Of a stretch of DNA of 64,000 nucleotides, positions 2,348 through 64,000 are shown in pieces; the stretch's first letter is position 1; the number at the start of each line of letters is the position of its first letter. The translations under genes and the position numbers were made by a program. The DNA lies in assembly GCA_030704615.1 (NCBI GenBank), contig CM060732.1, positions 79,546,001 through 79,610,000 of the forward strand, read 5' to 3'. The notes under the pieces were generated by a model that had not been told where the DNA came from, made no database searches, and worked only from the letters and a program-made list of their open reading frames with translations. The DNA comes from Takakia lepidozioides (taxonomy: Eukaryota > Plantae > Bryophyta).

Positions 2348-2359
2348 CTCGGGAAAGAT
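2348..2359 (+). promoter_or_regulatory. Putative self-priming primer-binding site, copy A
   Basis: CTCGGGAAAGAT is complementary to LTR 2171-2182 (ATCTTTCTCGAG) with one G-U pair. There is no TGG tRNA-type PBS. Confidence 0.7.
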
Positions 2360-24170: not shown

Positions 24171-24968
24171 CTATGTAGTATCTCGTCTTTTGTATGCCAT
24201 GGTAAATGAAGGGCCCGAACTTGCAGTCGAGATATCATAAGCTCCAGGCCCGGGACCTAAGTCCTTCTCTGTCCTAGGTTTTGAACCCTTGGAAGTGATA
24301 GAATAAGATGGACCTGAAGATCTGACGTCCGTGTTATAAGTTCCTGGTCCAGGTGTATTACTTTTGTCATTACTGAGGGTGTTTGATCCCATAGACAAGG
24401 AAGGAGGAGAGGAATTTGACCGCCTATGAGCTCCTGGCACTGGGATAGGTGAAGAGAGATCAGACGTCCTGGAGCTTATGCTGAAAGAGGGCCCAGTTTT
24501 GAGGTTTCTAGGGATGTTATACGCTCCAGGACCCGGACCGTGGCTGTTGTAGCTGGACGCAGAGCGTCCGCCCATAGAGAAAGAAGGTGCAGCTGTCTTG
24601 GTGGACCCAGTGTTCACAGCGTTGTAAGCTCCAGGGCCTGGCCCAGTTGAGCGTTCAATCTTATCTGACCCCCGCATGCCAAAGCTGAAGAATGGGCCAC
24701 GTTTGTTTGCTTCATAGACATCATATGACCCAGGACCTCTCCCCCATGTGTCCTGACTCGTTGGTTTTGCTCGCGAACCCATGGAAAATGCGGGACCAGA
24801 GGCCGAAACTACGGGGTTGTATGATCCTGGACCACGACGATTGTCGCCAGCCTTCAATTTCGTGCGCATGCCCATGGAGAAGGACGGCCCTGCTGTCCCA
24901 ATTGGCCTGATCTGATCGACGCTGTAAGTGCCCGGCCCAGGAGTTTTCTCTCTGCAGTCTCCTACCAT
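24171..24968 (-). CDS. ODF3/SHIPPO-repeat (sperm-tail PG-rich repeat) axonemal protein
   Basis: Seven PGPG(A/S/T)Y-type repeats, each followed by a P(S/A/F)(F/Y)(S/T)-type motif. First ATG at 24968. Upstream exons are possible. Confidence 0.85.
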   Translation of the reverse strand: MVGDCREKTPGPGTYSVDQIRPIGTAGPSFSMGMRTKLKAGDNRRGPGSYNPVVSASGPAFSMGSRAKPTSQDTWGRGPGSYDVYEANKRGPFFSFGMRGSDKIERSTGPGPGAYNAVNTGSTKTAAPSFSMGGRSASSYNSHGPGPGAYNIPRNLKTGPSFSISSRTSDLSSPIPVPGAHRRSNSSPPSLSMGSNTLSNDKSNTPGPGTYNTDVRSSGPSYSITSKGSKPRTEKDLGPGPGAYDISTASSGPSFTMAYKRRDTT

Positions 24969-27227
24969 GGTGTTAGCTTTTGGAGTTGAACCAGGTTGAA
25001 TCACGGTACATCAGATGAGCTGCGATATGTGACTGATGGAGAGAGTGTTTCACCTAAATGCAAGCCAAAAGCTGCGTCCGTTGGGCGCACATACTCGTAT
25101 GAGAGAGAGGGGTCGAAATTCAATGAGGAGAGAGATCAGGCGTGTAGCGATTTCTTCTGAGTGAAGCAGCTTCAGCTTGTCAACCCAATAATACCCCGGT
25201 CCGCTTCAATACTCGTGATACTTCATCATGTGACTCCCTTCAGAGTCTCGTACATGAATCAGCATTTGTAGTGTGCTGTTTCGTGAGAGAGAGGAGACAA
25301 CTAGTCGAAGACAGTGTGCATATAAGAAATGGATGGCAGTTGAAGTCAGCTGAATGGGAACTGTGACAGTTAAGAACCCATTTATATCTCTGTACCAGCA
25401 CTCCCACCCAATCACAATGCTCTCTCCTGCAACGGAAGACCAAGACTAGTGTGGGAACTCTCATAGAACAAGAAAAGGTTCTTCTTGAACTTGGGAACTT
25501 AGGTCAGAGATCATGGATTTTCGTAACGCCAGGTTGAGCCTTACCATATGAAGTGAGAGAGAGTCACTAACCACTCAGGATGGGGAACTACTAAGCTGAT
25601 GTTACCCACAATAGTTGAAAGATCCCACCAACCATACTTCGAATCCCCTTCTAACTGCCAAGCCCTTTCATACTTCCATGAAAAGGGCGCCTCTGTGCTT
25701 GTATGTCTTATCTGTCAATCTCAGAACCCATCTCCTTCTTTGGTAAATTATGCAAGTTCCCCCCGTCAAATTGTTCAGCAAGTACAGTGGCAAACAGAGT
25801 GACCTTCACCTGTTGCCATTCCCCGATCAATTCTTTTTCCGTATTTCTCATGAGGTCAATCGAGCAAGGAGTAGGTGGCATTGACAAGCACCCAAACTAG
25901 TGGGTTTTCTAGTACGCAGCTGCTGTATGTGGCTATCCCTGTCGTTGAAGAATGGGTTCCCTATGATATGCGTGACTAAAACCCTATAAGAGATGGTACC
26001 TGCAGCGAACATCTCTCTTTGATGAGTTGGAGAAGATTACCAGCAAGAAAAATCTGAATTGAGTGTTGTGGCCATGTTACCGAGCAAATGTCTGTGTGAT
26101 ATCCAGGTTAACAAGTCTATATTTTCTGGCTACAAATTTTGCTGAGTGTTCAGAAGATGGCGGCAGGGACTATCAAGTTGATAAACTGTATCCATGTACT
26201 GCCATTATAGGCACTGAAAGCAGACTCAAAGAAATGATTGTGGTTTGAGCTTGGAGATGGCAGAAGGCAATCCGAACCCTGTTGACCTAAAGAGGGAAAC
26301 TATGGGAACCACATTATTATCAAACAAACATTGAGACTCCCTCTTCTTGCATGCCGGCAGGATCAGTCACTGGGAGTTAGTCGAACTGGGCTGAGGACAG
26401 AATTTCCTCAGCAGATTGCAATGGGAAATCCGAGGCCACTCCCTTCCCATTCACTTGAGGCCAGCTGAATTTCTTGACTCTATACAAGCTGTTTTGACTG
26501 CGTACCTAGAGATATTTTATTCTCTCAGAGAACCAACTCGGCGTTGGCACAGGTTCAAATTGGAATTGATTCACCCCGTAGTCGATATTGGGCAAGCCTA
26601 AGCCATGCAAAATGCTTCAACAATACAGTGCCAGCATTCGCCTGCATGACAGAGAGGAAATTCTATCATGGGAGGTACACACTCTCGCGACCATGTTATT
26701 AGCCGCCCCCGCACTTCCTCGTCTGCGGAATGCAAGGATAAATGCCGCGATCCAAGTTCCGGTCCAGTCATCAAACGGAGAAGAAGCTGGGCTGTACAGG
26801 TACTACCTCACACCTCACTTCCCCTTCTCGATCATATTTCATGCAAGCTCGAAATCTGCTTAAATCGAAAGTGTGTGTATTGGAATGGGACGAAGGTGTG
26901 GTGTGGAGATATCTAATCCATGACGCACCTTTGAGGATTTAGGTCCCACGGTGCACTTACCGAAAATGAAGGCATGCGTAGGATTGCAACCCAGTATAGG
27001 AAGAATTTCAGACAATTCCATAACGCTCACACAGCCGACAACAATGAGATGAGAGGGGATTGAGCGATCTATACAGTAAGGCATGGTATGGAGGGTATGA
27101 TGTTCTGTCCAGCATTGGGGTTTGCAGAGAAAGAAATGAAATGAGAGGAACGGAAGAGAGACAAGCCAAGGAACTGGTGAAAAACTGGCAAGGGAAGGTA
27201 ACCAAGCAGACAGAAGTACTGATCTAG

Positions 27228-30200
27228 TGCTTCTAATGTACTTGACTTGGGAGTTGGTCTGAAGGACACTTCGAAATTCACGCAAAAGTCAATCAAAGAT
27301 ACCTTGCATTGTAAGCTTGAGGCCCTAGGCTCGTTCCGAGGATGCCGGTGCGAGGATTACTCACAGCAGAAGGGGAAAGGTGCTTTCATTGGTCTCCACA
27401 GCAACTGGGTCTCTCCTAACATTCTGGCTGCAGCGCGGCCATCAGATTGGCTACTCAGTGAACATCATCTTATTAGCCAGGTTCTTTTGAGCTCCCTCTC
27501 TCTCTCTCCCTCCATAAGCTCCTTGGGCTTTCCAAAGACACTAAGAAGTGCATTTTTCCTGCTTTCTTCCACAATCTCCTATGTTATGAAGTACCATTTC
27601 ATTTCATTTCCACAATCTCCTACAGTGACAGTCTAACAGCCACTTGCAAGATCAGTTTCCTTTCTTCACTTATGTCTTGCTCCAGACTTGTGAGTAAGGG
27701 GTCATTGCTCCCATGATATTCCAAAGTAGTGCAATGCCCTGCATGCCAAGCAAAAGGTGGAGAATCAACAAGGACCATACTGAAGCTTTCTACCAGCCCT
27801 GGTAATTCACAACTAGATAGATAACCTCAGCATCAAGCAGTCTGCCTTTTGTGAAGGAAACTATGGGGCAAACATCATGTTGTAATAACATAGGGACCTG
27901 CATCTGGGCAGTTCAAATCCTCTGGGATAAGCTCCATCTTCAATTTGCAAGAGCCAGGCGAGCATGCTACTTGTGGGCCTGGTGTCAATCACGACAGTGG
28001 ATTTTCATACACCCCCGAAGTCTTCATGGAAAACAATTGTCAGTAGTCCCCTCCCTCCTACCTTCACCATACCTTCACCAGGCTCCCATCTTTGTCCAGT
28101 GATTTAGGCTTAGTTCTAATACTGTGTCTGTTATGTGTTCATCCCATATGTTGTTTCTGTCTTCTTTTGTTTCTTTATATACATTTCTTTCCCTCTTTCT
28201 CTCTCCCTTTCCCACCTTGACACTCTGGTTTGAAAATTAGTGGGATTTGACGATTACGTAGGAACCAGATTCTCCATATGATAGTGCCTTTTGTCTCAGG
28301 GGTCACAACTGTAGGGGTTTAGAAGTACCTAAATCAATCAACTGTTGGGTGGAGAGGGTAGATATCAGGAAGAGCACAAGTGCATGTGGTTGGGGAGAGA
28401 AATGAAATGAAATGGTGCTTTATAACGTCCACGGAAAGCTCATAGAGCTTATGGGACAAAATGGAAGAAAACATGAGAGAGGAAGAAATCCAGAAACCAA
28501 GAATAACAATTAATGTTCTAGCGATTGTCTAAGGGTGAAGGCCTCGTGCAGGTAGGCTGCCAAGCATTTTTGATCCTCATAGTGGAGAGAGAAAGACCAT
28601 TTAGTAGATTCTCTGGGGTTGAATCCCTGTGCAGTTCAGTGACATTATTACTTCATTTCAAGAGGATGACATGTTAGAATGGAAGGGGGGTGCAGTATAC
28701 TACTACAACTATCCATGGAGGGACATGCAGTGCCCCAGCATGGAGCATTGCCTTGATATCTGTCAAGTCATGGTCTCCCGCATTTCCCTAGGAGAGAAGG
28801 TCAGACCCTTATATTTGTTACACAGAAACAGCAATTCCTCACCTTGAATTGGGTGGCATACTCTGAAGTGAAGGATAGAGGTTACCACGAAAATGGAACG
28901 TCCCCTTACTAGCGGGAACCCTTTCTGCAAATGCTAACACTCTAAAGAAATCACAGCCATCTAATCACTGGTTTTGCAAGATACATGGACCTTAAACCAA
29001 AATCTACTGTTTTTGTATCTGTTCTGGCCAAACATGTAATGACTAGGGAGAGGCTTTGTTTGGAATGTGGGGGTTTTTCTTGGGGCGCTTCACACAGGTT
29101 GCAGTGCACTGCCATTCAGGGCTGGGTGAGCATGCATCACATCTGTGCCTGTTACGACCACTGCCCACCATGCTCTTGCTGTCTTTCCTCTGCCTCTTTA
29201 CTACCGAAGCTTCCCATCTCACTCCATTCTTCCCTGGCCACGCTTTATGCAGAGACTGAATTGGAAACACATTGTAGTATATGTTCTGTGTTCTCTTTCA
29301 TTGGGCTTTCCATACACATAGATGTCTAAATGCAGATAACCATCTGAGATCTATGATGCCTTCATAGAAGATTCAGCTTGTTCACAGCCTTAGAAGTATT
29401 TCACAATGTTGTATCCCTTGATAAAAAAAATGGATGAACCCATTTTGACTGCCAAAGGAACATGAATTGTCTGGAGTTGCCCTCCCCCAACTCCCCATAC
29501 TCTCTTATATTTATGTAAGAAATATTCAACATTCAGCTATTCACTTCAAGATTGGTCCACTTGGGCTTTGCGATGGCAGTGATGACCAGCTAACCAGATT
29601 CTCAGCCAAGTTTTAAATAACTGACAAATTATTCTTCACATTAACGACTGATGGAAAGTCCTGGTTGTGATATTCAGGGCGCACTGGGCTCATCATTGCA
29701 TGTTACTTTGTCTACACCAACCACTGCCATACCTTCGATGAGGTATGTGTCTTTGCATGTGTAGAGTCTAACCAGAATGTGATGCAGCAGCCTATGTGCA
29801 CAGGCCATGTGAGAGGGCTCATATTTACTTGCAAGTGTCTTTCTACACAGATAAATATGTCAAAGACCGGGAGAGAGAGAGAAAGAGTTTGTGTGCATGT
29901 AGTTGCAGTACCAGTGGGATGAGGCAGAACCACACACACAACAAAGCCCGAGACCTGCCTCTATTATAGCTCATGGCCCTTCCTCTGCAAAAAATGAAAA
30001 TAAAACAATTAGAGAGGGTGTGTGGATAAGTAGTAGTTGCTGCCCAGGATTCTGCTTCTTCGGTTCCATTCTTTTTCTCAGAAGCTTTCTGTGCCTGGTC
30101 ACTCTTCTCTGGTTAGCAGCAAGGGTGAACCGTGGGATATGCCACCTGCTGCTGACCGGGGTTGCGTCTCCACCTGTTATGACACTTATTGACACTTATG

Positions 30201-33200
30201 ACACTTAAGTCATATCTCTTCATCTCTTATTTACTATAGATTTATTTGGTCTCTCAGTATTGACAGTACCATAGAACAGCACCTAATCAATCTGTTTGGG
30301 AAAGATGCAGACAAAGAGAGGTTAATGAAGGGTCACATTTTGGTTTTCATTTTGACAAATTTGGGGTTTGGGTGGTGACTGGATGGCAGGCAATACGAGC
30401 CGTGCGCGATTCTAGGTATGCATGCTATTCCCTTCAAAATGATATATTGGCTACTATTATGTTGGGGACCTTTGGCCATATACTTGCATATTCATTCCCC
30501 TCCTTGTATTTCTTGCTCTTCAAATGGATGCAATGGGATCTTGTAAGCTTGATAAGATGAGCTCAACCATGATCAGTAAGGCCTGGTCCTCAAAGACTCG
30601 CACTGCTTTCCACTCAATGATTTTTAGGGCCCCTTCACCACCCTACTTCCCGCATCCAAAGGCCATTTTGTGAACTCTTCCATCCTGTAGCTTTACGATT
30701 TGTTGTATGCCCTGAGTCAGACTCCATATCATGAAGGGTACCATTCCAGAACCTTGCAACTAGAACTTTCTCTAACATCATCTGAAATACTATGATTGTA
30801 GAAATGCTGAGTGGATGCTTCTCCGGTGCAGACCTGGATCACTGCCAACCCGTAGTCAAGTACAGCATGTGAAGCATTTTGAGGACTGGTTGAAAGATCT
30901 ACGCATTATTTTTGGGTATCCAAGACACTTCTATAAGACAGGCCAAGACCTACTTGGGTTCATGGTCCGGCAGCACAAGTTTTTGCATGGCCAAGAAGCC
31001 CGCGACCTGCGCTGCATACCCAAGGTCTCCCTCTCTTCTCCCTCTCTCTCAAGTATTTCTGGACAATCTTATAAAGTTGTCTCTCGCTGTCCATTTTGTT
31101 CTACTTGGTACCAGAGATACTGTGAACCTCCTGTGGCTATAGCAAACATCCTGTCTCGCCCGCTTCTTCTGGACATCGCACACCTTATCTCTTTCTTCTT
31201 GTGGACACAATATACGTCCTCCCTCTTCTCTTTGAGGTTCTTTCTTCAGGCAATCTCTTGAACAGTAGTTGCTTTTGGGCTGCTTTTGGCTCTCTCTTTG
31301 TGTGCTTTTGAGGCTATGGCAAACAACGTCTTATGAGTACATTTTTTGTGTGCTTTTGTCCTGCTCGTTATAAAGTACCATTCCATTTCGTTTCATTTCC
31401 CATAAGCTGTGTGAGCTCCCAGTGGACATTATAAAGTACCATTTCAGTCCATCTCATTCATTCTTTCTTTCTTTTCCCTCAACCATTCGAAACCAATACT
31501 AGCCTACAGCCAATGTCTCCAAAAACAATTTGGCAGGACTGCAACTGGATGATTCTCTAGGAAAATTCTGTGTTCATGCCTCTCAACAACCCCGAAGATG
31601 TTATAGGTTAAAATTCACAACCTTGTTCTTTGCTTCATGTAATATCAATCCTTACATTGGACTCTGCAGATTGTGTTTTGGATAACCAAGGACCTCATCA
31701 AGCGAACTAATTATGAAAGAGAAAAGAGGGAGAAGATTGCCATTGTATTTATGACAGAATTGGCATCCGAGTTTAAGACTCTGAAGGATTTCAAGTTCCG
31801 TAATCTTGTTACTGATGCCAAGGTCTTCTTCTAGCCCCACATATCCTGTCTTGTCCACACGACCTCTTTTTCTTCGACAGCTTGACTGGCAGTGCAATCA
31901 CAGCAGGTTTTTGTTTGGCTCTGAGCAAGCCATATGGCAATGCTGAGTTGAGTCCTATACACCCTGGTTGGCTGAAACCCCAAAACCGGCATCTATGGGT
32001 ACATGATGGCCAACCTTTGCAGGGGATGGTCATGGACTTGTCCGTTCCATCAAGCAAGAGTGGAAAGCTGGTCTGACCAACAATAAAAAGAAACAAGGAT
32101 GCCCATAGGGCCTATGGACACAGTAGAATTACAAGAGCTCTTAACAATTGAGTATTTTGTTTTTGAAAGTCCCATGATATTATGAAAAGACTGTGGCATC
32201 ACAGAAATGTATGAATGATCTTATCATGTGGATTACTCACAACCAAAATGCCTCGCTACACTCTGTCAACATTTTATGGGATGTCAGTGTTTGTGAGTCT
32301 GCGCATACAGGTCTCTCTCTTTGTTTGTGTGGATGAGAGCGTGGCTGGGTATCTTGTGAATGCAGCTAAGGTTGAATGCTGGCATATGGGATGATGTGGA
32401 GCTCCTAGACACGGAGGTGCTAGTGCACCTTTTGATTGATTGGCTTCGCCTTTTGCAGGTAGCTTTTCTAAATGTTCCTTCATCCCACATCTATAAAATG
32501 TTACATATTCCTGTCTTCCTGTAGTGAAAGCCCTTTGTGATCAGGTACAAGTTAATTCAACTCGAGCCGTCCCTACACTGTATGATCTTTTAGAGGCTGT
32601 GTAGAGACTCTTCCTCGGTGGACCCCAAGGACACCTGAGGAGCATGGTTGAATGGTGGATAAAGCAGACGTCACATGAAAAATAGCAGACGGCACTTTCA
32701 GGAAGTCCAAACAAACAGCTTCCATCAATGATTACCCTTCCAAGCCTATTCATTTTATGGCCTTCTGGAATTGCAGGAGCCAATAGTTCCTGACACAGTA
32801 CTATCATTGGCACTGGGCCGAGGAGAAATACAGGCAGCCGTATGGGAGCTTACCAAGTGTGGCAAGTGTACCCTTGCCACAATTCAAATATTGGCTTGCT
32901 GGATGTTTCAGGTCTCTCCTCTCCCTCTTCTCTATGGAAGACTATATTAGCACGGATCAGCATTCTTTATTTCATACAATGATGATACCGGCTCTGTAAC
33001 TGATTTACTGATATTTGTGAGCTCCATGGCCAGTTCTATGGCCTGAGTTACGGAACTTGGTGAGCGACAACACCATGACAGGTCTGGAAGGCTTAGTACC
33101 ATTTGGGGTGGAGACCAGCAATTATCAACAAGCTTATCAGAAATGCTTGGCAGCTTACCTGCACGAGGCACTCACCCTTTAGACAATCACTCGAGCAATA

Positions 33201-34305
33201 GTTTTTATCTTTGGCTCTGGTTTTGTTTCCTCTCTCATGTTTTCTTCCATTTTGTCCCATAAGCTCTATGAGCTTTCCACGGACATTATAAAGCACCATT
33301 TCATTTCATTTCTCCCTCTCTATGTGCCCTTATGGCCCACTGTCAAAGTTACACAGTTCCTTAGCTTTCTTTGCTTGTGTCAATTGATGTAGCCCTCGTG
33401 GCCCTGTGTGGACATCATAAAGTTTCTAGCTTTCTTTCTCTTTTGTAAAATGGTCCCTGGGAACACTTGGACGCTAGAAAACTGAGGCCTGAAAGGCAAC
33501 AAATATGCCAAAGGGTGATACCCTGTGAAAAGGAAGAACCACCTCACACCATGTGCCACCTCCAACAGTAGGCCAGGGCGTCAAGAGGCACAAAGGGCAG
33601 ATGCCCAAATTCATATTTCATGCACACAGAGCTGATGTGGCTACATGTGAACTGCAGATAGTACCAGTGAAGGCAAGCCTTATCCGGCGTCTGTACAGCG
33701 GATTGGCACATGTGTTGCTGCACCGATCAAGCCTCGAGGATGAGAAAGACAAGGGTTTGTTCAACCCAGGGATCTTACCAGGGAGTGTACCCTCCCAAGA
33801 CTCAAAAAATGATCCATCCTCGAAGCGTCGATCAACAATTTGGGGTAGAGATGCTTCTTTTACAAAGTACAAACCATCTCCTCTAGAAACTGAGTTCGGG
33901 TTGTTGTTAGAAGCTTCGGCGCGGTATTGGATCAAAGAGAACAAGATTGCTAGGGCGCAGCTCCAGGTTGCAAGGAGAGAGAGCTCCTTGCCCAACAATG
34001 GGGACACTCTCGTAGATCTTGCAGCCAGGGAGAAGAGACTGAAGGGACCTCTAAATGAAATTCTTGCTGGGGAACCATGGTTGAAAGACTGTGCAAGTTT
34101 GCAATTTGACAGTGAGGTTGGTTTGACCAACATCCATGCCACCCTCGCAACAAGCGAGGGACAGGCTTGGCAGCTGACTGAACCAACCAGCAGTCTCAGT
34201 GAAAAAGGAGGGCAGGCGCTTGGAGGGTCTAGCTTCAAGGGAGAGAGCCAAGCTCCGGTTTCATCAAAACCTCATCGGGGACGATCCTCGTACACATTTT
34301 GCTGA
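27228..34305 (+). CDS. PTPDC1-like protein tyrosine phosphatase (multi-exon)
   Basis: GT-AG exons with consistent phase: ?-27480, 27912-28038, 28696-28799, 29098-29125, 29678-29742, 30390-30415, 30832-31024, 31670-31822, 32366-32458, 32777-32911, 33658-34305. Motifs SNWVSPNILAAARPS, NLQEPGEHATCG, WRD and catalytic HCHSGLGRTG. The start exon was not located. Confidence 0.88.
28399..28586 (-). mobile_element. 3' fragment of the CATTT-tailed LINE, intronic
   Basis: Matches about 21603-21785. Confidence 0.85.
33136..33312 (+). mobile_element. 3' fragment of the CATTT-tailed LINE, intronic
   Basis: Reverse-complement match to the same 3' end. A smaller remnant lies at about 31370-31460. Confidence 0.85.
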
Positions 34306-49377: not shown

Positions 49378-50989
49378 TGAATTCAGGCATTCACACCAAG
49401 TTGTGCTTGTATTGTATTCAGTTTTCCTTGTAGGTGTTGCACATAGAAAGGTAAACCCGTTTTCATTTCAGATTCATCTATGTCTTTGCTTTGCAACACA
49501 AACAAATTGTATACCATATCTACACCTCTGCCATTCCAACCCCAGATACAGATCCTATACAGTCACTATAGCTTATTCTCTGGGCATGTCAGGATTGCCC
49601 CTAATGTATCAAAGTGAGTTCACACAAAAAGCTGTGGCAGATTCATGACCCCAAGGTCGCCTTGGCCATAGGTTTGCAAATTCTTCAATCCATAGAAATG
49701 AACAGCTGAATTATGTTGCTAACTATAGTACATCTTCTATTTGTACATGAAATTTCACAGAATGTAGCCGAATGGAATAAATTTTTGGTGAGCTGCAACA
49801 TGGAATTCAACTGTCGTAAACTGCATGCTGCCAGCCAGAGTCAACTTCGTTTGGGAAAGCTTCAGTCCCATCTCGGGGTCAGCCTCAGGCATTGGTGATT
49901 GCCCCCAGTCGGCTCTCCTCTCCCCTTTACTGCTGTGTCCAGATAAGGCGCGGAATCCAAAGTCTACTGCGTATATATATCGATGCGATTACAGGCACGA
50001 AACGCACACGCGACACATTTCATGATTTTCCGAAGCTTTGCATTTCGACAAACGGGACTGCGAGAGAGTAAGGATCACAATTTGCGCAGCGTGATACCAA
50101 CATTTTCGGTAGCTGAAGCCTGTCACCTCCCCCCTCGCATGTGATCCCTTCCTCACAACAAAATGTAGGTTCCAAAATTATAACAAGGGTTTAAGAAAAA
50201 CGTCTCGTGACGAACATCATTGGGTAAGAGTTAAACGACAAGCCCACATCAACATTCTTCGGAACCCAACTCAGATCTCTTACTTTCCTCGCATTCTCCC
50301 CTCCCCAGGGACCAAACTAAGAATCACCCTCGTCCGTGATCACAAGCTCCGTGGGTTTGGACTCATTTGTTCCCACATTTTTTCTTCTGGTACTTTTGGT
50401 ATACACGATTTCCAATCACAGATGCAAACACGCCGCTGCTGCATTTCTCAAATCCACCCCTCCATGCAATCTCAACAAAGATATATATGTACACGCTCAA
50501 GCCTTATGACCATCGATCCACTGGAAAACAAATCCTACCAATTAAATCAAAAAACGTAATCTGTAAAATATTGATGAAAAATCCATCTACACCTGTCTTG
50601 AACTACTTTGTTCCGTGACGGAAGAGTCGTTACAATTCTCGAGAACCCCATAAAGAAAGGGAAAGTAAATCAAACCGATCTAGCATCAACTACTGCCTGA
50701 AGTAGATCAGACTACAAGAAGAAGGTGGGTCTCACTTTGCAGGTGGTCAAAGATACCCTTGACATTTTCAACCCAATAGTCCTTCATCGCCACTTCAATT
50801 GTTTGTAAAGTGTCACCCCACTGTCCCAGTGTTAAGTGCCCGAGGTCCAGCTTCAAACGGACTAGAGAGAGAGAAGAGACTCGGGCCCAACCAAGAGCCA
50901 ACTCCACCTTTGGGCTTTTGGGGGTGGGGTGGCATTGATGGGTGGGCCCTGTCGGATGTACTAATCTGGATCGGCAAAGCAACGAGAGG

Positions 50990-51341
50990 GAAATGAAATG
51001 AAATGAAATGGAGCTTTATAACGTCCGCGGAAAGCTCATAGAGCTTATGGGACAAAATGGAACAAAACATAAGAGAGGAAACAAAAAAACTATTGTTCGT
51101 GCCTCATGCAGGTAGGCTGCCAAGCATTTCTGATCTTCATAGTGGAAGACTTCAGTGAGAGATTGGGTTCCACGGAATAGACAGTGGAATCACCCACGGA
51201 TCTCATGGTATAGAGGGCAATAGAAGAAGAAGTGTTCTTCAGTTTCAATGTCCTGGTTGCGCCCTGTGCAAGCTGGACATAGGCGGTCCTCTGCCAGTCT
51301 CTATCCGTAGGTTGTGGGAGCCCACCCTGAACAGCCCCAAT
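50990..51341 (-). mobile_element. 3' fragment of the CATTT-tailed LINE with internal deletions
   Basis: Matches about 21603-22005 in pieces. Confidence 0.85.
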
Positions 51342-51360
51342 TACAGTCTGCAGAGGTTCA

Positions 51361-52473
51361 ATGGCAATGTGTGATTGTGACGGCTTCTGCATCTGCAAAC
51401 CGAGACTGCTGCGATACAATGTGAATGGCGGCATCGCCATTCCTGACCCTGCAGATGAGAGCCCCTTCCATTTCCCAAAACTGGACTGGACGACTGAGCC
51501 CAGAGTGAGGGTGTGGAAAAGGCCACCCAGGCTGAAAAGAAGGCCGGGGTTCTGGGGTTTGGAATATATCACTGTCGAGTGGCTTGGCAAAATCACGACG
51601 AAGAGTGACTTGTACAACTGGAGAGGGGCAGTCTCTATCTTATTAAATGTCGTTCTTTTCCCTTTCACTTTCATGTTGTTGTGTTTGGTCCCCGTTATGC
51701 AATTCGTAGACTACTTGTTTAGTGAGATCATACTCAATCTGAAGTCCGAGGATCTACTGCTGTTTGCCAACGGCCTGATATTGTTTTATCAGCTGCCCTT
51801 AGCACCCTTTCTGGTCTACTTCTTCATGTTGTGCATGATACCTGTAAACAAGTGGTTGTGGAGCTCGAATACTGCCAAGAGTGAAGTTTGGGCTTTCAAT
51901 TTTGTTGACGAATACTGTGGGAGGAAAGTTGCCAATTTCATAGGAAAGAGCATCCCCTTTGGTTTTTGCCACTGCACCTGGAGAGATGAAATAACCGTGG
52001 AACTCCTCCTCAGACTACACGGGATAGGGAAAACTTTGGAAACACCTAAGTCCTCCGATGTCTTCTCATATTTCATCAAAAGGGAACACAAGGGCAGAGT
52101 ACATGCAGTGTTGTTGAAAGGGGTATTTGATAGGGACCAGAAGGGTGAGACTCAGTGCACCATTACAAGCATACGAGGTTACTTGACCAATCTAAGAGAC
52201 AACTCATTGAATATGAAGGGCCAGGAGCACGAAACAGTCAGCTGTAAAGGCAGTGCCCATCAATTTCTCAAACTGAAGACTTACTTCTGTCACTTTATGA
52301 GGATGAATGGGATCACGGCAACCGTTGTGGATGACCTCGACAGGAATAAGTTTCATAGTCTGCACTCTATGGAGCTAAAAGCCTTGGTGAAAGAGATAAT
52401 GGTTGGAGATCTGAGAGTTTGGAAATTGCAAATGCCTAGGCAGGTCATGGGGGAAGAAATACCTGTTGGCTGA
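51361..52473 (+). CDS. Unknown 370-aa intronless ORF with 2-3 predicted hydrophobic segments
   Basis: Open ATG-to-TGA frame of 1113 nt with a Cys-rich N-terminus (CDCDGFCIC). No family recognised. Confidence 0.55.
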   Translation: MAMCDCDGFCICKPRLLRYNVNGGIAIPDPADESPFHFPKLDWTTEPRVRVWKRPPRLKRRPGFWGLEYITVEWLGKITTKSDLYNWRGAVSILLNVVLFPFTFMLLCLVPVMQFVDYLFSEIILNLKSEDLLLFANGLILFYQLPLAPFLVYFFMLCMIPVNKWLWSSNTAKSEVWAFNFVDEYCGRKVANFIGKSIPFGFCHCTWRDEITVELLLRLHGIGKTLETPKSSDVFSYFIKREHKGRVHAVLLKGVFDRDQKGETQCTITSIRGYLTNLRDNSLNMKGQEHETVSCKGSAHQFLKLKTYFCHFMRMNGITATVVDDLDRNKFHSLHSMELKALVKEIMVGDLRVWKLQMPRQVMGEEIPVG

Positions 52474-54690: not shown

Positions 54691-56123
54691 TTCAGCCTAA
54701 TGTTGGTCGAATATCAAATATCCATCTTAAATTCAGAATGCATACAAGTGTATAACTCATATAAGCCATAAACTAGTGTCAATATGCGCAAGGGTATAGG
54801 GCCCACCCCCAAAAGGGGGCATTAGCCGCATGACGAAGTGGCTCTTTAGTTACGCCGGCTTTGGCCGGAGTCTTCTCTCTCTCTGCAAGAGTACATGTGC
54901 TACACACTATGGTTTTTTTTTTCCTTATGAAACATGGGATGGTGGCCCTGATGGTCATTAACCTATCTACTAGTGACATACTTTTACGTCAATATTTAAA
55001 GAACATGTACACAATTTTATACATCAAATTTTAATGTCTCTTTCATAGCTAAGTTAAACGTCATTTGAAAGCAAAACAAAACTCATTGAATGATACATAA
55101 ACACAATACAAAAACATTATTTGTATATAATATAATAATATGTATATTAATCACATTACTCAAATATATCAAGTTCATTACTAAAATATATTGATGATGC
55201 TTTAAAATGAATATATGTACATATTTTTAAATTTTGTATGTTATGTCTCTCTCAGATGAATTTTCAATAATTTCTTGCTGATTACCCTTGCAAAAGTCGT
55301 TCACGACACGACTGCTCTGGACCTGATAATGCAGAAAGCTCTGGGTTTAGATCCACTCTTTTTAGTGTATGTACAATACATGTATGGTAATCCGGTGTGA
55401 GGCAACTTACACTAGATCATCTGCAGATAAGTATGAGAGTGTTGTCTCATTTAGAATCATCTGATGTGCATACCCAGTTTGAAAATTGTTGAATTATAGT
55501 CGTGGGACTCACCGTGTCTCATGCTGAGGATTCTTGGCAGATTAATTGACCCTTTCTGGACAGATAATGAGCTATAGTTTCTCAAGAAAATCCGCGTTTT
55601 GTGCAAAGAGTCATCGGATATGAAAGATGTCTATTCAATTCATTCAAGTACTTTGATCTATAGAGTGTACTTGGGAATACCTAGCCTGGTGAAAAGATTA
55701 AAAGGTCCCTACATGCAATCTTAAGTGAAGATCTTCATTTCTAAGTAGATCGTCATAATTAGTTAACAACACCAACATATGTTATCTTCCAAGACCCACA
55801 TAATTTCAAGTCTTCACATATTTCAATCTCCTTAGAACGATCTAAGATCCTCTTTTTGTGTCTCTTGGTGTTAATCATCTCAAGGTCCCAAATATTCCTG
55901 GAGATGTAGTTTCGACACTGGAACTCTATCACTGCAGCTAGCAGGCATGGTTATACGAGAAAGAGGGGAACATTTTCTATTTTAAAGAGAGATCTGCCAA
56001 ATGAGAAGTTCAAGATTCTATCAATGGTATCTGTGTAATGTCCGTAGATGAATGTTTAGTGGTTACTTTTGTAAAGTAATATGCTTACTTTAGACAGGAT
56101 GATACCGTCATTTTAATGACATT

Positions 56124-56489
56124 TGTCATGGTTTTAGTCACGGTTAACTAGAATTACCTACTTCTAGTTAACTAGGACATTTTGGATATTTATATTTGTA
56201 TTTTGTGTGTTGGGACTTCATTTGGTCTCACATGCCAAGTGAGGTGTCAAACCTCACTTGGGACATGGGGATGGGTTTTCCCCTTGTGAGCGTTGAGGAG
56301 GGCTCATCTTCTTGTAGTTGAGCCTCCATGAGCCTCTCTCACCTCCATAGCTCTAAGTATTGAGAGGGAGTGTGTTGAGGGCTTTGTAGGGTGGATTCCC
56401 TTAGCAAGGGTGCCCTTGACTTGACTTAGTTTATGTGATTGAGTGGATTCATGAGTGGAGTGTTTCCCTTGTGTTCACTTTCATTATCA
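56124..56489 (+). repeat. 5' LTR of copy B
   Basis: TGTCA...TATCA. Shares the GGCTCA-loop-TGAGCC hairpin and CTTGACTT with the copy A LTR. The partner LTR is outside the window. Confidence 0.75.
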
Positions 56490-56501
56490 CTACAAGAAGA
56501 T
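56490..56501 (+). promoter_or_regulatory. Putative self-priming primer-binding site, copy B
   Basis: CTACAAGAAGAT is the exact reverse complement of LTR 56306-56317 (ATCTTCTTGTAG). Confidence 0.75.
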
Positions 56502-57969
56502 CACCTTATGCTTGTGAGTGCGGAGTGTAAGGGTTAGTTTAGTACTTGTGTGTTGAAGAGCTTGGGAAGATAGCTCTTGTGTTGCAAGGTGTTACATATA
56601 TTGTAAAGGAAAATCTTTGTGGTGTTAGGGCTTTGAGAGATATTGCTTTGCCCTAAGGAGGTGGAGAGCTCAAAGATGGAGCTCTTATAGATCACAAGCC
56701 TTTGCAAGGAAAGGTACTTGTGGTGTTACACCAAGGTGTTGGGGAGCTCAAGAAGGAGCTTGTTTGCCACAAGATTTGCAAGGATTGCAAGAGGGAAGTC
56801 TTGTGTGTGTGGAAACATGGATTCTAGGGTTTGAGAATCATTTCTATGCATTATGGAGTCAATGGTATGTGCCATGGCTTGAGGAGAGCAACCAAAGGAT
56901 TGTTAGTGCTCATTTCACTATCAATCTAGGGTTAAGCAAGCTCAATTGTGGATGTTGTGGAAGAGAAGCCAAGGAGCTACATAGGCTTGGGCTTGAAGAC
57001 AACAAGGGCAAGCACTTGGAGAGCATTAGGAAGCTCAAGAGGTTTGAAGGGAAGCATATGGGTGAAAATTCTATCCATGATGATGTGAAACCAAGCCTAG
57101 AGCATTGAAGAGCTTGGAGCACATGTAGGAGATCATTGGAGGTGGTCTTCATGAAGAAAAGAGATTGTGGCTCAAGGCATGCATAGCAATTTCAACCATA
57201 CATTAGCATGTGACAAGACAAGGAAGGGGAATGTGAAGCTTATGTATTCATTCTCTTTTGGCTTAAGTTTTGTGGTGGATGGTTGATCAAGCAAATGATG
57301 CTTATGTGGAGCATGCTTCCCAAGTGTGGCTTCCAACTTCAAGCTTGATGAGAACTAGAAGGTGAAGGGAGCAAGTTGATTCCCTTGTGTATGAAGTGAT
57401 GCATGTGTGGAGCATGCTTTGGGCTTGAGCAAGCTTGAGAGGAATGGCTCTTGAGCTAGCAAGTGAAGGGAGCTTGAATGACCAAGGCTTGAGAGGAGAC
57501 AAGGCTTGGTGGCTTGCCAAAGGCGGTACAAGCTTGATTTGGAGTTCCAATGAGAAATTGAGCTTGTTGTGTGGCCAATGCATTGCTAGTTGAGTTGGAG
57601 ACAAATTTGAGTAGCTTAAGGTGAAAAAGATCAAGGTAATTTGCCTTGGTACCCCATAGAATTCATGGATGCTTGAGGGGATTAAGCATAGAGCCCCAAG
57701 GAGCACAAACCCTAGCTTGGTAAGGCTAAACCTCAAGGAAATAGAGGGGGAAGTGGCTAAAGCCTAGAGGAAAATGGCTAAACCTTGGGGGGAAATAAAC
57801 TACTCTATGAGGGGGAAATGGCAAGGGGGAATACAAAGGGAATACGTATAGGCCCAGGGGAATACTGGGGGAATACTATGGCATATTCTCAGGAATATTC
57901 CTAGGGAATTTTGGGAACCTATTGGGAACCCATTGGGAACGCATTGGGAACATAGTGACATAGATGAGT

Positions 57970-58260
57970 CATTGGAGGACTGTTTGGAGGACCATTGGGA
58001 GTCCTTGGAGGACTGTTTGGGGTCCTTGGAGGTCTGTTTGGAAGACCATTGGGAGTCCTTGGAGGACTGTTTGGAGGATCATTGGGAGTCCTTGGAGGAC
58101 TATTTGGAGGACCATTGGGAATCCCTGGAGGACTGTTTGGGGTCCTTGGAGGACCATTTAGAGTTCTTTGGAGGACCATTTGGGGTCCTTGGAGGCCAAT
58201 ATTTGGCGAGCTTGAGGAGTCTTTGGCGACTTGTGTGAGGGACTATTGGGGTCCTCAAGG
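57970..58260 (+). repeat. 33/21-bp tandem array in the copy B leader
   Basis: Unit GGAGGACTGTTTGGAGGACCATTGGGAGTCCTT and a 21-bp variant. Confidence 0.95.
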
Positions 58261-58986
58261 GCTAAGTTTTGGTAGGCTCTTGGGGCCTTGGTGTACTGTT
58301 TTGGAGTCCCATCGTGCAAGGATTGGGAGCCTTAGTGAGATTGTTTGAGAGACATATTCTTGAGGGCCCCTGGAGGGTTATTTGAGAGACCCTTGAAAGG
58401 TAGTTTTGTCTATTGTTCAAGCAAGAGAGTGTGGAGATAGGGTAATGGGATGAGAGCATGTTGTGATAGGAATTGCTTTAGTCTCTCTTCCTTGTAGTCT
58501 TCCACCCTCTCTGTAGGCCAAAACCTTTCTGTAGGTGGAGGCAAAAGTCAGTCCGGTTTGGCTGGGGTGTCATTGCAGGAGCGACATTGTGGAGTGTTTT
58601 TGGTGTGGGAGGGTTGCTGTATTGATTTTCTTGTGTTTGGATCCCCTCCGCACCTGCATGCTTGACTATGTGCCATGTTAGCTTTGTGTGGGCGCTTGTT
58701 TTCATAGGAGGTTGGTCCGGATATCACCGGCCAATCCTAGAGCATGCTGTCGGTGGTGAGGCTGGGGTGATGACCAGTCAGACCATCATTGTTTCTCTTA
58801 TGGTGAGGATAGGTTGATGACCAGTAGACCATAGGAGTGCTTGCGGTGGATGCAGATGCAGGTGCAGGTTTATGTTACGAACCTAGTAGTCTAAGCCATA
58901 AGCCGCAACAGGTTCTCTACCCGGTTACCTTGTGGAAAAGGGGATTAGAGACAGGTTTACAACAGGTGTGGTTGTGAGTTTTTGTC

Positions 58987-60794
58987 ACGGAGGTGCCACC
59001 AGTTGCTGAGGAGAGTGCCGGTACGAGCACCAGCGATACTAGTGGGTATACAAGACGAGGTGTGCGGTTTAGGCCACCTTCACCTTCAGTGTCTTCTGAG
59101 GAAGGTTCAGACTCGGAGTCAGGAGGATTCTCGCCGAGGGTGCAAGTTATTTCCATGCCATTGTTGTGGGACACAATGGAGGAGATGTACGGAGCTACCA
59201 AGGGGCCACGTAGGTACTCTGGAGCTGTGGGCACCATCGAGCTTGATGACTTCATACAAGAGTTTGACAGTTGCTGTGATTTGCAGCAGATGCGCAATCC
59301 ACAACTGTTTACGCCTTTAATGGCGTGGAAGGGGCTGTTTCAGCACCTTGAGGGGCCGCCCATGGATGATTACCATGAGTTTAGGCGGGGACATGAGGTG
59401 GAGATTGAGGAATGGCGGGTGTATTGGTCACCTGACTATGTCTCCATCACTAGAGGCACAAGGGTAGTGGTGACACCGGCAGCTACACCGGCAGCTTCTG
59501 CAAGCAGCAGTGGGACGTCAAGTGGAACAGGAGCTGGGAAGTCCACCCAAGCTCCTGCTGCAGCACCAACACCCGTGCCTGCCTTTAACCCAGTTGTGGA
59601 GTTCTTTGAGGAGTTAAGGAGAAACTACCAGGGGATAATGACAGAGAAATTGTGGAGCTTGCAAGAGTTCCAACGAAAGCCTACTGAGAGTTTAAGGGAG
59701 GCTTACACTCGCATGAGGCGCTTGATAAACATAATCCAAGGGGTTACAGAAGCTCAGGCAGTCCAATTCTGGTATGGGATATTGGACAAAGAGCTGAGGA
59801 GAAGGGTGCGGGATGCAACTCTCCTACAAGTGGCCCAACCCACCTTAGCAAACGTGCTTTTGCTGGCAGAGCGGATAGAGCTCAATATGGTGGAGGAGCG
59901 AGTGGTCATGGTGGGATTTGGTAAGGAGACACAACGAAGTGGGGCTCCTAGCCAACAACAACCACTACCCCAACGTGCTCAAGGCAACAAGGGGGCTCAG
60001 GCGAAGCCCAGGGAAGGGCCGAGAGGATCTCAATTGCAGAGGTCTCTTCCTTCATTCTCAGGCCAACAACAGTCGGGTGTGACATGTTGGGATTGTGGAG
60101 GACCCCATGTTAAGAGAGATTGCCCGGAGAGAGGCACAGGCACATCCTACACAACTACAGTGTGGGCATTGTGGCAAGTATGGGCATGAAGAGGCCTATT
60201 GTTATGACTTGCATCCTGCTACAGCCAGGCCAGTTCCAAGGGAACAATGGTGGCCGAAGACGAGGCAATGTAGTCCAGAGAGGTAGAGGAGGCAGAGGTC
60301 GTGGTAGAGGTCGTAACCAAAACCAAGGAGTACAGGGTCACGGTCAAGGTCATGACCAAGGCATGGTAGATAGGCTTGCCCAGCTAGAGCAACGTCTTGC
60401 TACCATGGCCACTACTCATGTTGCGCTAGCTCCAAGGCCTGAGGTTCAAGCCCCACCTGCACAACCTCCTATGCCTAGGGAAGACCAGATTGGTATGGGT
60501 TTCATGTATGGAGCCGCACTTGCAGGACCATTGCATGTGGACTCTGCAGCTGCTGTCACTCAAGCAGCAACGCGTGCTCCTGAGCCAAGAGGAGCGGATA
60601 TGGATTTTGATCCACAAAGACGAGAAACAAATCGGCAGACAAGGCTTCCACAGTCTTTCACATTGGCTGAGACAGTGCCAACTATGTCATCGATGGCACC
60701 CGCTCGCCCAAGTGTGTCAGAGGTAGAGCCACGAGTGCCATTGGGGAGAGTTGGTATGGCTCGGGAAATGCCAGTGGGTGGTACTGCAAAGTAA
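58987..60794 (+). pseudogene. gag: gag of copy B
   Basis: 398-aa open frame with CWDCGGPHVKRDC, then CGHCGKYGHEEAYC after a frameshift, and an RGG-rich tract. Confidence 0.88.
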
Positions 60795-61089
60795 GGTATA
60801 GCCAGAACATTGTTGGGGGCGGCTACGGAAATTTGCCAAGCTTCATTGTTTTCTGCCACGACAATTGCAATGTCGGGGATGCGGCCAGCTGCAGTGTTTA
60901 GACTAGCAGCTACACTCTGTGAGAGTGGTGATGCATCGGCACTATCTGCGGGAATAGCAGATAAGATGCAATGCATGAATGCCCTAGATTCAAGGATGAA
61001 GACAGCCACAGCTGCGCCAGCAAGCGGCAGCCGCAAGGTTACAGAAGTTGTCATCTAGGCCAGCCATTGAGCGCAGTATGGTGACTCCT

Positions 61090-61480
61090 GGGGTAGTCCT
61101 GGTGGACAATCAGGATGGTGTATCTCAGTTGGGTGGCCCAGCCGGGGGGAGGTATAGGCCACTGCGAGTCTTGTTGGACTCAAGAGCACAGCCATTGAGG
61201 TTGGGAAGAGTAGCAATTGCAGGCTTGGGCCTTACAGAGGCGGATTTGGAGCCTTGCCCTTTCCAAATTCAAACATCTTTGGGTGGTTCAGAGAAGGCAC
61301 GAGGGATTACACGCCATGAGCTCTTCATTCGATTGCAGCCGGATCATCCTATGGACGGCTCAGTCATAAGAGCTAAAGCCATTGTTACGGACGCGATGTC
61401 CTATGATGTGCTTGTTGGTGGGGCTGTGTTGTACCCCATGGGATTTACTTTGGATTTTTGGGAAGAAACGGCATCCTACA
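61090..61480 (+). pseudogene. Retropepsin-like aspartic protease domain
   Basis: VLLDSRAQ (DSG to DSR, D at 61177) and YDVLVGGAVL. Confidence 0.8.
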
Positions 61481-61890
61481 GGCCGGAATGGCAGTCAGGA
61501 GATGGCCAATGTGCACTGCTCCCAGTGCGGTTTATTGGGAATGTAGCGGTGGATCATAGGAACATAATGCCCACATTGGCTGCATTCTCAGGGGTGGTGG
61601 TTTGGTGTGGTGAGCTCTTGGAGGGCAATAGCCATGCAGATGATAGGCCATCACCTGATGAGGACAAACAATTGGCATACAAGGCTGATTTGCTTCCTCA
61701 TGTGCCTGTGCATATTCCACTGTGGGGTACGGTTGGGAATTTGCATCAAGTAGCAGGCGAGTGTGTGCACCAAACATGACATGATGCCTTTCCATTGGTG
61801 AGTGAGGGGAGTTCAGTGACATCACTTGGACCTCCTGAGTTAGCTCCTTTGGACACAGTGCCCATTACCTGGCAACCACCTGACTCAGGG

Positions 61891-62830
61891 ATTTGTTTGC
61901 TAGACTTGTTTGAAGGCATGAGCACTGGGCTTGCAGGAGTATTGCAAGCAGGGATTAAAGTACGCAAGTACTTGTATGTGGAGAAGGATGAGATAGCTCA
62001 ACATATTTCTATGCGCCACATCGCCTTGCTTACACACCGGTATCCTAAGTTGTTGCCTCTCTCAGCAATTCAAGGGTATCAAAAGGCCTTGCCAGCAGAC
62101 ATTACCTTTTTGGGGGCGGATGATTTGGACCGGCATGGTGCCATTGACTTGGTGATAGCTGGATGGCCTTGCCAAGGACACTCTCCCGCGGGTCATGAAA
62201 ATGGCTTGCATGATGCACGATCACATTTGTTTTGGGAGATGTTGAGAGTGTTGCGTGACTTGCAGACAAGGCGAGTGCAACCTCTAGCCTACATCTTGGA
62301 GAATGTTCCTCTTATGGGGGACTCTCGGGCCAGGGTTATGGCCAGTGTGCATCAGGTGCGGTCTTGGATTGGATCACCGGTGCTATTGGATGCAGCAGCG
62401 GTGGGATCACGCGCGCTCGACCTCGATTGTGGTGGACCAATCTTGCACCACCAGAGCTGCTCAAGAGAGCATATGATTCCATTCAATGGCTACCCAATCT
62501 CACGATTGAGGGCATTTTGGACCAAGGGAGGCAACCACAGAGGGTGCAACATGATGACCGTCCACCTCTAGCAATGGTCAATCGAGTGGGGCAACCACGT
62601 ACAGCCTTGCCTATGCTCATGAGTTTTCCCTCGTCTCATGTTTTTCGAGATAATGGTCTTGGGTTGATTTGGGACAGTGTGCTACAGCAATTGGTGGAGT
62701 CCAATGCGGATGAGCATGAGCGGGCAATGGGGTTTGCCACGGGCACTACAGCTGTGCCAGCTTTATCAGAGGCATCACGACGCCAGGTGTTGGGTCAGGC
62801 AATGGATCTAAATTTCTTGACATGGATAAT
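61891..62830 (+). pseudogene. C5-cytosine DNA methyltransferase domain (DNMT3-like) within the polyprotein
   Basis: Motif I LDLFEGMSTG, II VEKD, IV IAGWPCQG (Cys at 62170), VI YILENV (62299), VIII RA(H)RPRLWWTNL across a 1-nt deletion at about 62416, IX ERAMGF, X RQVLGQAM. Confidence 0.93.
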
Positions 62831-63212
62831 TGGTTTGTGCATGGCTGAGCAACGGAGATTGCAAGCATTGATAGCTACTTCTACACTCCCATTGGATGGT
62901 GCATCCTCCCTGCCAACCGGGATGGTTGAGGCAGTGAGTGGGGGCGAGCACAAGATCGTGGGTTGGAAACACCCATGGCAGATGTGGGATGAGATGCGCA
63001 AAGAGAGAGTCATTGGATCTCTCAAGCAGCAATATGAGGAGTGGGGAGAGCCATACACTGAGGATCAGTTAGAAGCAAAGGTGACCAATGTTTTTGAAGA
63101 GGTTGAGAATGTTTCTTGCTCAGAGGATGTTCTCAAGGTGGCTATGGCGGAGCAAGTGGAGGCTACGCCACAATCAGATTGGGCGGACAAGGCCCAAGAG
63201 GTTGCTATCTAG

Positions 63213-64000
63213 CAACCAAATGATTCGTCTCCTACCTCCAAGCCTGGTGTACCCAAGGTTGCAGTCACTGAGGACAATTGGGAACTAGATGTTGGACCTA
63301 CAATCACCGGAGGAGAGAGACGGAGGATCCAGCAATTTCTAAGGGCTTATAGAAATTGCTTTGCCTTCGGTTTGAAGGATTTGGGGAGTTTGAAGGGTCA
63401 GGAGATTCGTATTGATTTGGCAAGTGACACGCCAATCTTTCGAAGGCCCTACCGGTTTAGTGACATAGAGAGGTCATTGATCCAGTCACGGACTATGGAG
63501 TTGTTCGAAGCTGGATTGGTGGAATTGTCAGGCGGGGAGTATGCCTCGGCAACGGTGATGCCAGCTAAGAAGGATATCTATGGCAATTGGACAGAAAGAA
63601 GGATGTGTGGGGACTATCGTCCTGTGAACCGTCAGACTAAGTCCGATAGATATGTCATGCCAACTCCAGAGGAGATCTTTGATGCCATTAGGCATGCAAA
63701 GGTGTTTAGCACATTGGACTTGCGATCCGGTTACCACCAGTTGCCAATCAAAGAGGCTGACAAGCAAAAGATGACATTATGGGGGATTGACCAACATGGG
63801 AAGGATTGCTTGTACCAATGGCGGTTCTTACCGTTTGAGCTGAAGAATGCTCCTACAGAGTTTCAGAGGGTCATGGATAGGACTCTCATGGGGCTAGACT
63901 TCGTCCGGTGCTACATTGATGACATCATCGTCTTTAGTGCTACGGTTGAGGAGCATGAGAGACACCTTCAGGTGGTGTTTGAGCGCTTGGGAGCGCACGG
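63213..64000 (+). CDS. pol: Reverse transcriptase of copy B (open to window end)
   Basis: Uninterrupted frame after TAG 63210-63212: RMCGDYRPVN, STLDLRSGYHQ, LPFELKNAP and YIDD at 63912-63923. Confidence 0.95.

Follow-up and report, generated by a model that had tools for sequence, protein, structure and literature searches.

A land-plant Gypsy-like retrotransposon family with a DNMT3-type methyltransferase domain at the end of its Gag-protease reading frame

The window, that is, the whole 64,000-nucleotide stretch of DNA analysed here, holds two related copies of one retrotransposon family. The copy of chief interest, element 1, is a decayed, dead copy of a Gypsy-like element starting at 56124. 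It carries a cytosine methyltransferase (DNMT) domain between protease and reverse transcriptase (RT), which confirms the placement inside the gag-protease-RT region of a Gypsy element that was given in a preliminary description of this DNA. The features of element 1 are:

56120-56123, predicted target duplication flanking element 1, whose 3' end lies beyond the window
56124-56489, + strand, 5' terminal repeat A1, starting TGTCATG and ending TTATCA; a depth step falls in the bin 56001-56400, and the start motif is that of the A repeat of locus L042
56306-56317, + strand, predicted self-primer inside A1 (the transcript 5' end), whose 12 bases all form Watson-Crick pairs with the primer-binding site at 56490-56501, a match equalled in 0 of 300 shuffles
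56490-56501, + strand, predicted self-priming primer-binding site adjoining A1, with no TGG-type tRNA site
56502-58977, + strand, long 5' leader containing tandem repeats at about 57850-58250
59176-61020, + strand, gag, with capsid, two zinc-knuckle-like motifs and a linker (weak PF03732 match, E 0.006; tblastn with the Marchantia protein P0005)
61021-61530, + strand, aspartyl protease matching the protease region of P0005, its active site DSG changed to DSR at 61177-61185
61891-62870, + strand, DNMT3-type C5 cytosine methyltransferase domain, intronless and in canonical motif order (PF00145, homologs, fold of a homolog)
63210-63218, + strand, conserved in-frame stop TAG followed by CAA CCA, the end of the Gag-protease-DNMT open reading frame (ORF) and a predicted readthrough signal
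63213-64000, + strand, RT with YIDD at 63912-63923 (PF00078, E 3.2e-20), in frame with the upstream ORF and running off the window

Gag, protease and DNMT form one product, and RT, RNase H and integrase lie beyond a stop, in the same frame as Gag-protease-DNMT and downstream of it. The protease of the window gave no Pfam match. The first ORF of element 1 is damaged by four frameshifts, two premature stops and the DSG to DSR change. The frameshifts lie near 60113-60147, 60217-60249 and 61021-61040 and at a 1-nt deletion at 62416; one premature stop (60792-60794) falls within one aligned frame and the second (61777-61779) lies upstream of the DNMT. The lesions noticed earlier, at 62416, 60792 and 61777 and in the protease active site, are all real, but that list was incomplete, three frameshifts having been missed. 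The stop at 63210 is a feature of the family and not a lesion. In contigs of public DNA runs, nearly all of the depth has DSG at 61177-61185 and reads TGG where the window copy has its stop at 61777, and 14 contigs of X1 carry the extra base at 62416 (X1 and X2 are one sample, from which the window itself may derive).

Element 2 is a related copy with 76-80% nucleotide identity to element 1:

2021-12844, + strand, element 2
2021-2347, its A1 repeat
near 6900, internal deletion of protease and DNMT
7195-7203, stop TAG CAA CCA, the same as in element 1, followed by RT-RNase H-integrase
10129-10628, N gap
12442-12666, 3' part of A2
12667-12844, B repeat

This copy retains gag, the stop and RT-RNase H-integrase, and has a clean 4-bp target duplication, GGTA, in a PPR-like reading frame that is continuous when the flanks are joined. 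The segments 850-2020 and 12845-16100, which we take from their translation by eye to be a degenerate PPR-like repeat array, would be its insertion target. The pair 2123-2347 and 12442-12666 was rejected as the long terminal repeats (LTRs) of element 2, the true ends being 2021 and 12844 with the GGTA duplication. Because protease is missing as well as DNMT, element 2 is a deletion derivative; and since it is target-duplicated without either, it was mobilised in trans or deleted later, so that it may either represent a subfamily that is non-autonomous or have lost these parts after insertion. The segment 10629-12441, from the N gap to the A2 remnant, is unrelated-looking DNA with short tandem repeats, a GC-rich end and a SWIM zinc-finger ORF at 11242-11784 (PF04434, E 2.5e-5); a nested element or a join in the assembly is the probable explanation.

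The exon of a flanking hydrolase gene shares 71-72% identity with its counterparts in Ceratodon and Sphagnum, 64% with those in liverworts and at most 65% with those in vascular plants, amongst the best 120 of 624 matches. By these identities the host is an embryophyte, probably a moss, and most likely one close to neither Ceratodon nor Sphagnum. The embryophyte host proposed earlier thus agrees with a moss-like flanking gene, and algal contamination is not borne out. Elsewhere in the window there is a sperm-tail PG-rich (SHIPPO) repeat exon at 24174-25010 on the - strand (E 4.6e-38), which fits a plant with flagellated sperm, and a 380-codon open frame at 51331-52470 (+ strand) with no Pfam match. 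Two ORFs at 21887-22918 (- strand) presumably correspond to the 3' part of a LINE reverse transcriptase, which they resemble. A short dispersed repeat, possibly a SINE or MITE, occurs in both orientations at 21603-22004, 28397-28586, 31386-31458, 33136-33320 and 50984-51341, and a separate short high-depth repeat lies at about 54830-54885.

The motifs of the methyltransferase are in canonical, unpermuted order (FEG 61909-61917, PCQ 62167-62175, ENV 62299-62307, R-x-R 62418-62426, ERAMG 62718-62732, LGQAM 62790-62804), so that the intronless C5 methyltransferase recognised earlier by its motifs is indeed present at that place. The Pfam search that had been suggested matched PF00145 on the N-half with E 1.7e-13; the C-half searched alone had no Pfam match and is alignable to homologs. 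The E of LFEG is a decay private to the window copy, G being found in 36 of 39 distinct copies. A close homolog, P0001, matches DNMT3A first amongst PDB sequences (E 6e-12), followed by DNMT3B, DRM and bacterial enzymes, and its predicted structure (pLDDT 92.5) has DNMT3A/B/C as all of the top matches listed, with a best E of 1e-18. As judged from this modelled homolog, which is DNMT3A-like in predicted fold, the window domain is of the DNMT3 type. Pfam found no DUF3444 in the element proteins scanned.

The family extends well beyond this locus. Searching with the N-half of the DNMT gave 37 longer homologs, the named ones being from Marchantia, Calypogeia and Sphagnum (54-70% identity), and P0005 is a 1278-aa Marchantia gene model of gag-protease-DNMT structure. 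The metagenome scan found 54 loci carrying the DNMT family, whilst the viral contigs searched for it gave no match. The persistence in seed-free land plants that had been proposed is upheld by the homologs in these three genera, and the domain, being family-wide in the homologs and the 54 loci, is no one-off capture. Summed contig depth over the DNMT was about 82,000-166,000 versus 61 for the flank in X1, and about 71,000-74,000 versus 113-120 in X2; the resulting ~600-2700-fold excess over the single-copy flank signifies high copy but is not equal to copy number. The Marchantia/Sphagnum gene models P0003-P0006, P0008, P0010, P0011, P0016 and P0023-P0027 are parts of this retrotransposon, although their annotation calls them hypothetical proteins or DNA methyltransferases. 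A literature search for five of the gene ids found them in none of the papers searched.

A cluster-representative search gave 251 matches with E <= 1e-30. Amongst 237 proteins scored for the position of the DNMT, it lies before RT in 53 and after RNase H in 108, with 73 too short and 3 without a match. Named members with the DNMT before RT come from bryophytes and Closterium, and those with it after RNase H from Chromochloris, Haematococcus, Cymbomonas and Hariotina. The DNMT cargo is therefore much wider than the Klebsormidium lineage. No Klebsormidium-named protein was found among the matches and named cluster members. An unrooted RT tree of 44 selected rows, made by a quick method, splits the two layouts by one branch (SH-aLRT 99). 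The DNMT tree (FastTree; 65 rows selected from the loci and the 237 proteins scored, with two distant ant DNMT3s as the root) contained neither host plant DNMT3 nor DNMT-less Gypsy sequences. Of what the preliminary description had looked for in such phylogenies, a place for the window DNMT was obtained, since it groups with bryophyte sequences (0.996), but the backbone is weak and yields no root or donor, and a comparison with Klebsormidium elements failed for lack of a sequence so named. One capture followed by a move and two separate captures are both compatible with these data. P0283, P0345, P0350, P0355 and about 100 unnamed proteins are chlorophyte/prasinophyte Gypsy polyproteins of the order RT-RNase H-DNMT3-integrase(-PHD), some of which add G-patch or Tudor-like domains; polyproteins of this order are not mentioned in the available part of PMC5890265.

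Between lineages, the DNMT has a pS of 0.67-0.87, near saturation, versus a pN of 0.23-0.37, and the pN of RT (0.14-0.22) lies below that of the DNMT. In the closest copy pairs dN/dS approaches 1, in keeping with decay after insertion. For 40 distinct main-family copies, the omega of the DNMT is 0.28 for non-deamination changes common to at least 4 copies (14 N, 17 S) versus 0.88 for singletons (123 N, 47 S; Fisher p 0.006). The protease likewise gives 0.26 for shared changes versus 0.98 for singletons, and the RT counts in this comparison are smaller and lower. Eight near-identical loci, and L040, which is the same insertion as L042, were dropped before the conservation and omega counts. Every distinct copy that covers the site keeps the catalytic Cys (41 of 41), and the same holds for the ENV Asn (44 of 44). 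The substitution patterns indicate that the DNMT is under purifying selection between lineages, in place of the dN/dS near 1 across copies that had been named as evidence against the family's DNMT. CpG depletion does not differ between the DNMT region (0.50) and flanking host ORFs (0.45-0.60), and CpG/CHG depletion is uninformative here.

TAG CAA CCA stands between the DNMT linker and RT in both window elements, and an in-frame stop is present at the Gag-protease-DNMT/RT junction in 38 of 38 junctions, representing 33 distinct copies and five lineages (38 of 56 sequences cover the junction, and 18 of 54 loci do not cover it or do not match the RT start). These stops comprise 29 TAG and 9 TAA, with CAA next in 36 of the 38; a second stop follows in L034 and L038, consistent with C-to-T decay. 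Each side of the stop, the linker residues vary from lineage to lineage, and there is no conservation across lineages of the bases that precede TAG. Marchantia proteins end at the position equivalent to the stop. The TAA variants, with 7 changes for 7 copies and a G-to-A background of 20%, are scattered decay, and being unclustered they do not exclude splicing.

CAR-YYA is the readthrough context of TMV (PMC2194720), and in its strict form it follows the stop at only 5 of 38 junctions. Nevertheless, it is probable that a few ribosomes would pass TAG-CAA-CY, so that the DNMT would be produced in capsid-like amounts, well in excess of RT and integrase, and be freed by the protease in the particle. 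A less probable course, which would alter the Pol step only and leave the DNMT at Gag level, is that TAG acts as a true stop and RT-RNase H-integrase is expressed from a spliced RNA, by reinitiation or from a separate transcript. Tca2 offers a precedent, since its stop has a context suggestive of readthrough that does not necessarily bring it about (PMC2194720). With splicing, TAG would double as the AG acceptor, and the active form is indeed always TAG, never a heritable TAA. For reinitiation, the main metagenome family mostly reads TAG CAA CCC ATG, with an ATG at +7 in 32 of 32 main-family rows that could serve this purpose. However, the ATG is missing from that place in the six rows outside the main family, the lack of conservation before TAG speaks against a true stop, and CAA-CY is retained after the stop in four of five lineages, the fifth (L038) having TAG CCA, probably a decayed CAG.

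The ends of these elements also depart from the usual plan. The complete layout A-ORFs-B-A-B is found in L028 and in L042, where it reads A1 (339 bp)-ORFs-B1 (113 bp)-A2-B2; L010, L031 and L039 have B-A-B 3' ends, and L014, L016 and L036 have single-B ends. The layout is partial in element 2, and element 1 shows A1 alone. The canonical Ty3/Gypsy pattern of the same LTR at both ends is therefore not seen, the start being A and the end B. The Gypsy order protease-RT-RNase H-integrase is present, as seen from element 1 (protease, RT), element 2 (RT-RNase H-integrase) and complete loci. Thus, the ‘LTR retrotransposon’ of the preliminary description was right as to its Gypsy domains, but its ends are split, permuted repeats and not ordinary LTRs. 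The integrated form has TG..CA termini, and a 4-bp target duplication flanks six of six elements with both ends, the TG start being decayed in two of the six. The integrase has rve (PF00665) and H2C2 domains, with no tyrosine-recombinase-type DIRS/PAT/Ngaro assignment. A PHD finger follows it in L042 (E 4e-10) and in the complete relatives translated; in element 2 the equivalent part falls in the N gap, and in element 1 it would lie beyond the end of the window.

The TGG start of a tRNA primer site was seen after A1 in 0 of 16 copies read by eye. The bases after A1 pair with a stretch inside A1, over 12 nt in element 1, 16 nt in element 2 and 16-20 nt in L004, L033 and L042, and 0 of 300 shuffles reach each strong case. 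Across 16 copies, A1 self-complementarity is strong in five, moderate (10-11 nt) in three, weak (9 nt) in two and at chance level in six. The paired primer sequences (12-20 nt) differ across three lineages, and the pairing stops at the repeat boundary. The pairing of Tf1-type self-priming stops at the same place. In three lineages (L042:1830-1864, window 56300-56324 and 2165-2189) the predicted self-primer lies within the short motif GGCTCA...TGAGCC, which, on base complementarity, could fold into a hairpin where the transcript starts. In 9 of 9 cases the first B has a G-run before it. Reverse transcription is quite likely to be self-primed, with the transcript 5' end pairing with the site after A1 and the plus strand starting from the G-run before B; because of that start, the working LTR would be B+A.

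The joint between B1 and A2 is GACA-GC-TGTC or a decayed form of it in six of six cases, with GC, AT or AC as the spacer, whilst the joint between A2 and B2 has extra bases in two of six loci, those in L032 including primer-site sequence. Retroviral integrases are able to cleave 2-LTR circle junctions (PMC1180852, PMC1905944). There is about an even chance that the cDNA of this family circularises and is then cleaved by integrase at GACA-GC-TGTC, the internal palindrome where B meets A; such a cut would produce the integrated A-ORFs-B-A-B (or A-ORFs-B), bounded by TG..CA and a 4-bp duplication. Against this, the product expected from a cut at the circle's other palindrome, A-B-A-ORFs-B, was not found, and no B match lies upstream of any A1. 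Recombination between B1 and B2 could be a source of the single-B forms.

The reading preferred here, with a probability of about 0.58, is that of a high-copy moss Gypsy-like family whose first ORF encodes Gag, protease and a DNMT3-type enzyme that is likely to methylate the element's own cDNA in the particle before integration. Its parts differ in strength. The DNMT is likely to be packaged with Gag and released by the protease, it is very probably active on DNA, and it is somewhat more likely than not that its substrate would be the double-stranded cDNA intermediate. New copies would then arrive pre-marked, and the PHD finger of the integrase would steer their integration by histone state. 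Element 2, whose integrated copy has no DNMT, counts against this reading, as does the Klebsormidium domain, which gave no methylation in yeast, a result called inconclusive by its authors (PMC5890265).

The enzyme might instead act on chromosomal DNA, at the insertion site or on existing copies, and so hold the family or competing elements in check and spare the host some of the damage. A Gag-level product would be abundant outside particles as well, the PHD finger points to chromatin, and slowed transposition has been discussed as a benefit by de Mendoza et al. (PMC5890265). However, Pfam found no chromatin-reading domain within the Gag-protease-DNMT product itself, the PHD finger being on the integrase end instead; fusion to Gag would place the DNMT with the cDNA; and the family attained high copy number. 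Action on chromosomes seems unlikely on this balance, and it is less likely still that the domain owes its retention to binding, or to RNA as its substrate (particle RNA, or circle DNA ends), and not to 5mC formation on DNA. The inactivity of the Klebsormidium domain in yeast (PMC5890265) would suit the latter, as would the greater tolerance of amino-acid change in the DNMT than in RT noted above, yet the catalytic Cys and ENV are kept, the predicted fold is that of a DNMT3, and de novo CG methylation is established for the domains of the related SymbioDIRS-Dnmt3 (PMC5890265). That a retrocopy of a host DNMT3 was captured just once, or that the DNA is an algal contaminant, to which the domain-less element 2 in the same window might have pointed, is refuted by homologs at the same position across mosses, liverworts and Closterium, by the 54 loci, the moss-like flank and the purifying selection, element 2 being a deletion derivative without protease too and DUF3444, a C-terminal mark of host plant DNMT3s, which are multi-exon genes (PMC6453930), being absent.

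Methylation of cDNA in the particle may belong to a larger picture, which is put forward only tentatively: an ancient green-plant lineage, at high copy in mosses and liverworts, would combine self-priming, integration of a circle through an att palindrome in a permuted LTR, a readthrough-loaded, capsid-level active DNMT3 that methylates cDNA and a histone-reading integrase PHD finger, the DNMT having moved once between a post-protease slot (streptophytes) and a post-RNase H slot (chlorophytes).

Why a transposon should carry an enzyme of the class that silences it has been a question since 2018, and the sole Gypsy-type domain tested was inactive in yeast. Marchantia is a genetic model with host methylation-machinery mutants, and the presence of the family there makes self-methylation testable in its own kind of host. 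The first ORFs appear intact in Marchantia; if so, self-methylation by a transposon is directly testable in a genetic model plant. The conserved stop predicts the amount and location of the enzyme made. Because of the split repeats, standard LTR finders would be likely to miss or mis-bound such elements, and family ORFs annotated as host hypothetical or methyltransferase genes can distort DNMT surveys.

Split direct repeats are the layout of the DIRS, PAT and Ngaro elements. These, including SymbioDIRS-Dnmt3 (PMC5890265), share with the present family the A1-ORFs-B1-A2-B2 arrangement, a methyltransferase cargo and a probable circular intermediate, but this family has a DDE integrase (PF00665) in place of a tyrosine recombinase, a protease, TG..CA ends and 4-bp duplications. 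The self-priming Gypsy elements Tf1/sushi and Tcn1 (PMC6317226, PMC2864245) resemble it in having no tRNA primer site and LTR-derived sequence just downstream of the 5' repeat; they have ordinary LTR pairs, and Tcn1 a chromodomain, whereas here there are split repeats, a PHD end (in complete relatives) and a DNMT. The readthrough retroelements MuLV, SIRE1 and Tca2, with the TMV signal (PMC2194720), have an in-frame stop between ORFs and a CAR-YY context, but here the stop follows the protease and an enzyme cargo, where those elements have it immediately behind gag or ahead of env. The host plant DNMT3s (PpDNMT3a/b) and DRM (PMC6453930) have a DNMT3-class catalytic domain as well, from which the present one differs in being embedded in a polyprotein, without DUF3444, introns or the DRM permutation. 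Troyka (PMC12440569) is unrelated, being confined to animals, with CG..CG ends and a 3-bp duplication.

A literature search for elements of this kind, over mostly open papers and without Repbase, found only PMC5890265 and no land-plant description; Marchantia does not occur in the text and supplements of PMC5890265 so far as these were available. A review (PMC6338049) has methylase-encoding transposons absent from land plants such as tracheophytes, and Sarre et al. 2025 (PMC12344493) speak of ‘streptophytes’, and their supplementary trees could include bryophyte copies. What appears to be new, from sequence comparison, is the conserved stop, the split repeats with a 4-bp duplication, the self-priming-type site and the chlorophyte post-RNase H DNMT.

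The nearest known system is KnitGypsy-Dnmt3 of Klebsormidium nitens (de Mendoza et al. 2018, PMC5890265), which has an intronless, unpermuted DNMT3-like domain, Gypsy domains, a DIRS-like repeat structure and purifying selection on the DNMT. The available part of that paper mentions no readthrough, self-priming, target duplication or PHD finger for KnitGypsy-Dnmt3. In contrast to that element, the window family is hosted by land plants; and whereas the DNMT of KnitGypsy-Dnmt3 shares the Pol ORF with RT and RNase H (PMC5890265), here it ends the Gag-protease ORF. Thus, with a stop between DNMT and RT at every junction covered, the family is a variant, not a member, of the KnitGypsy-Dnmt3 type: a land-plant variant of the same kind.
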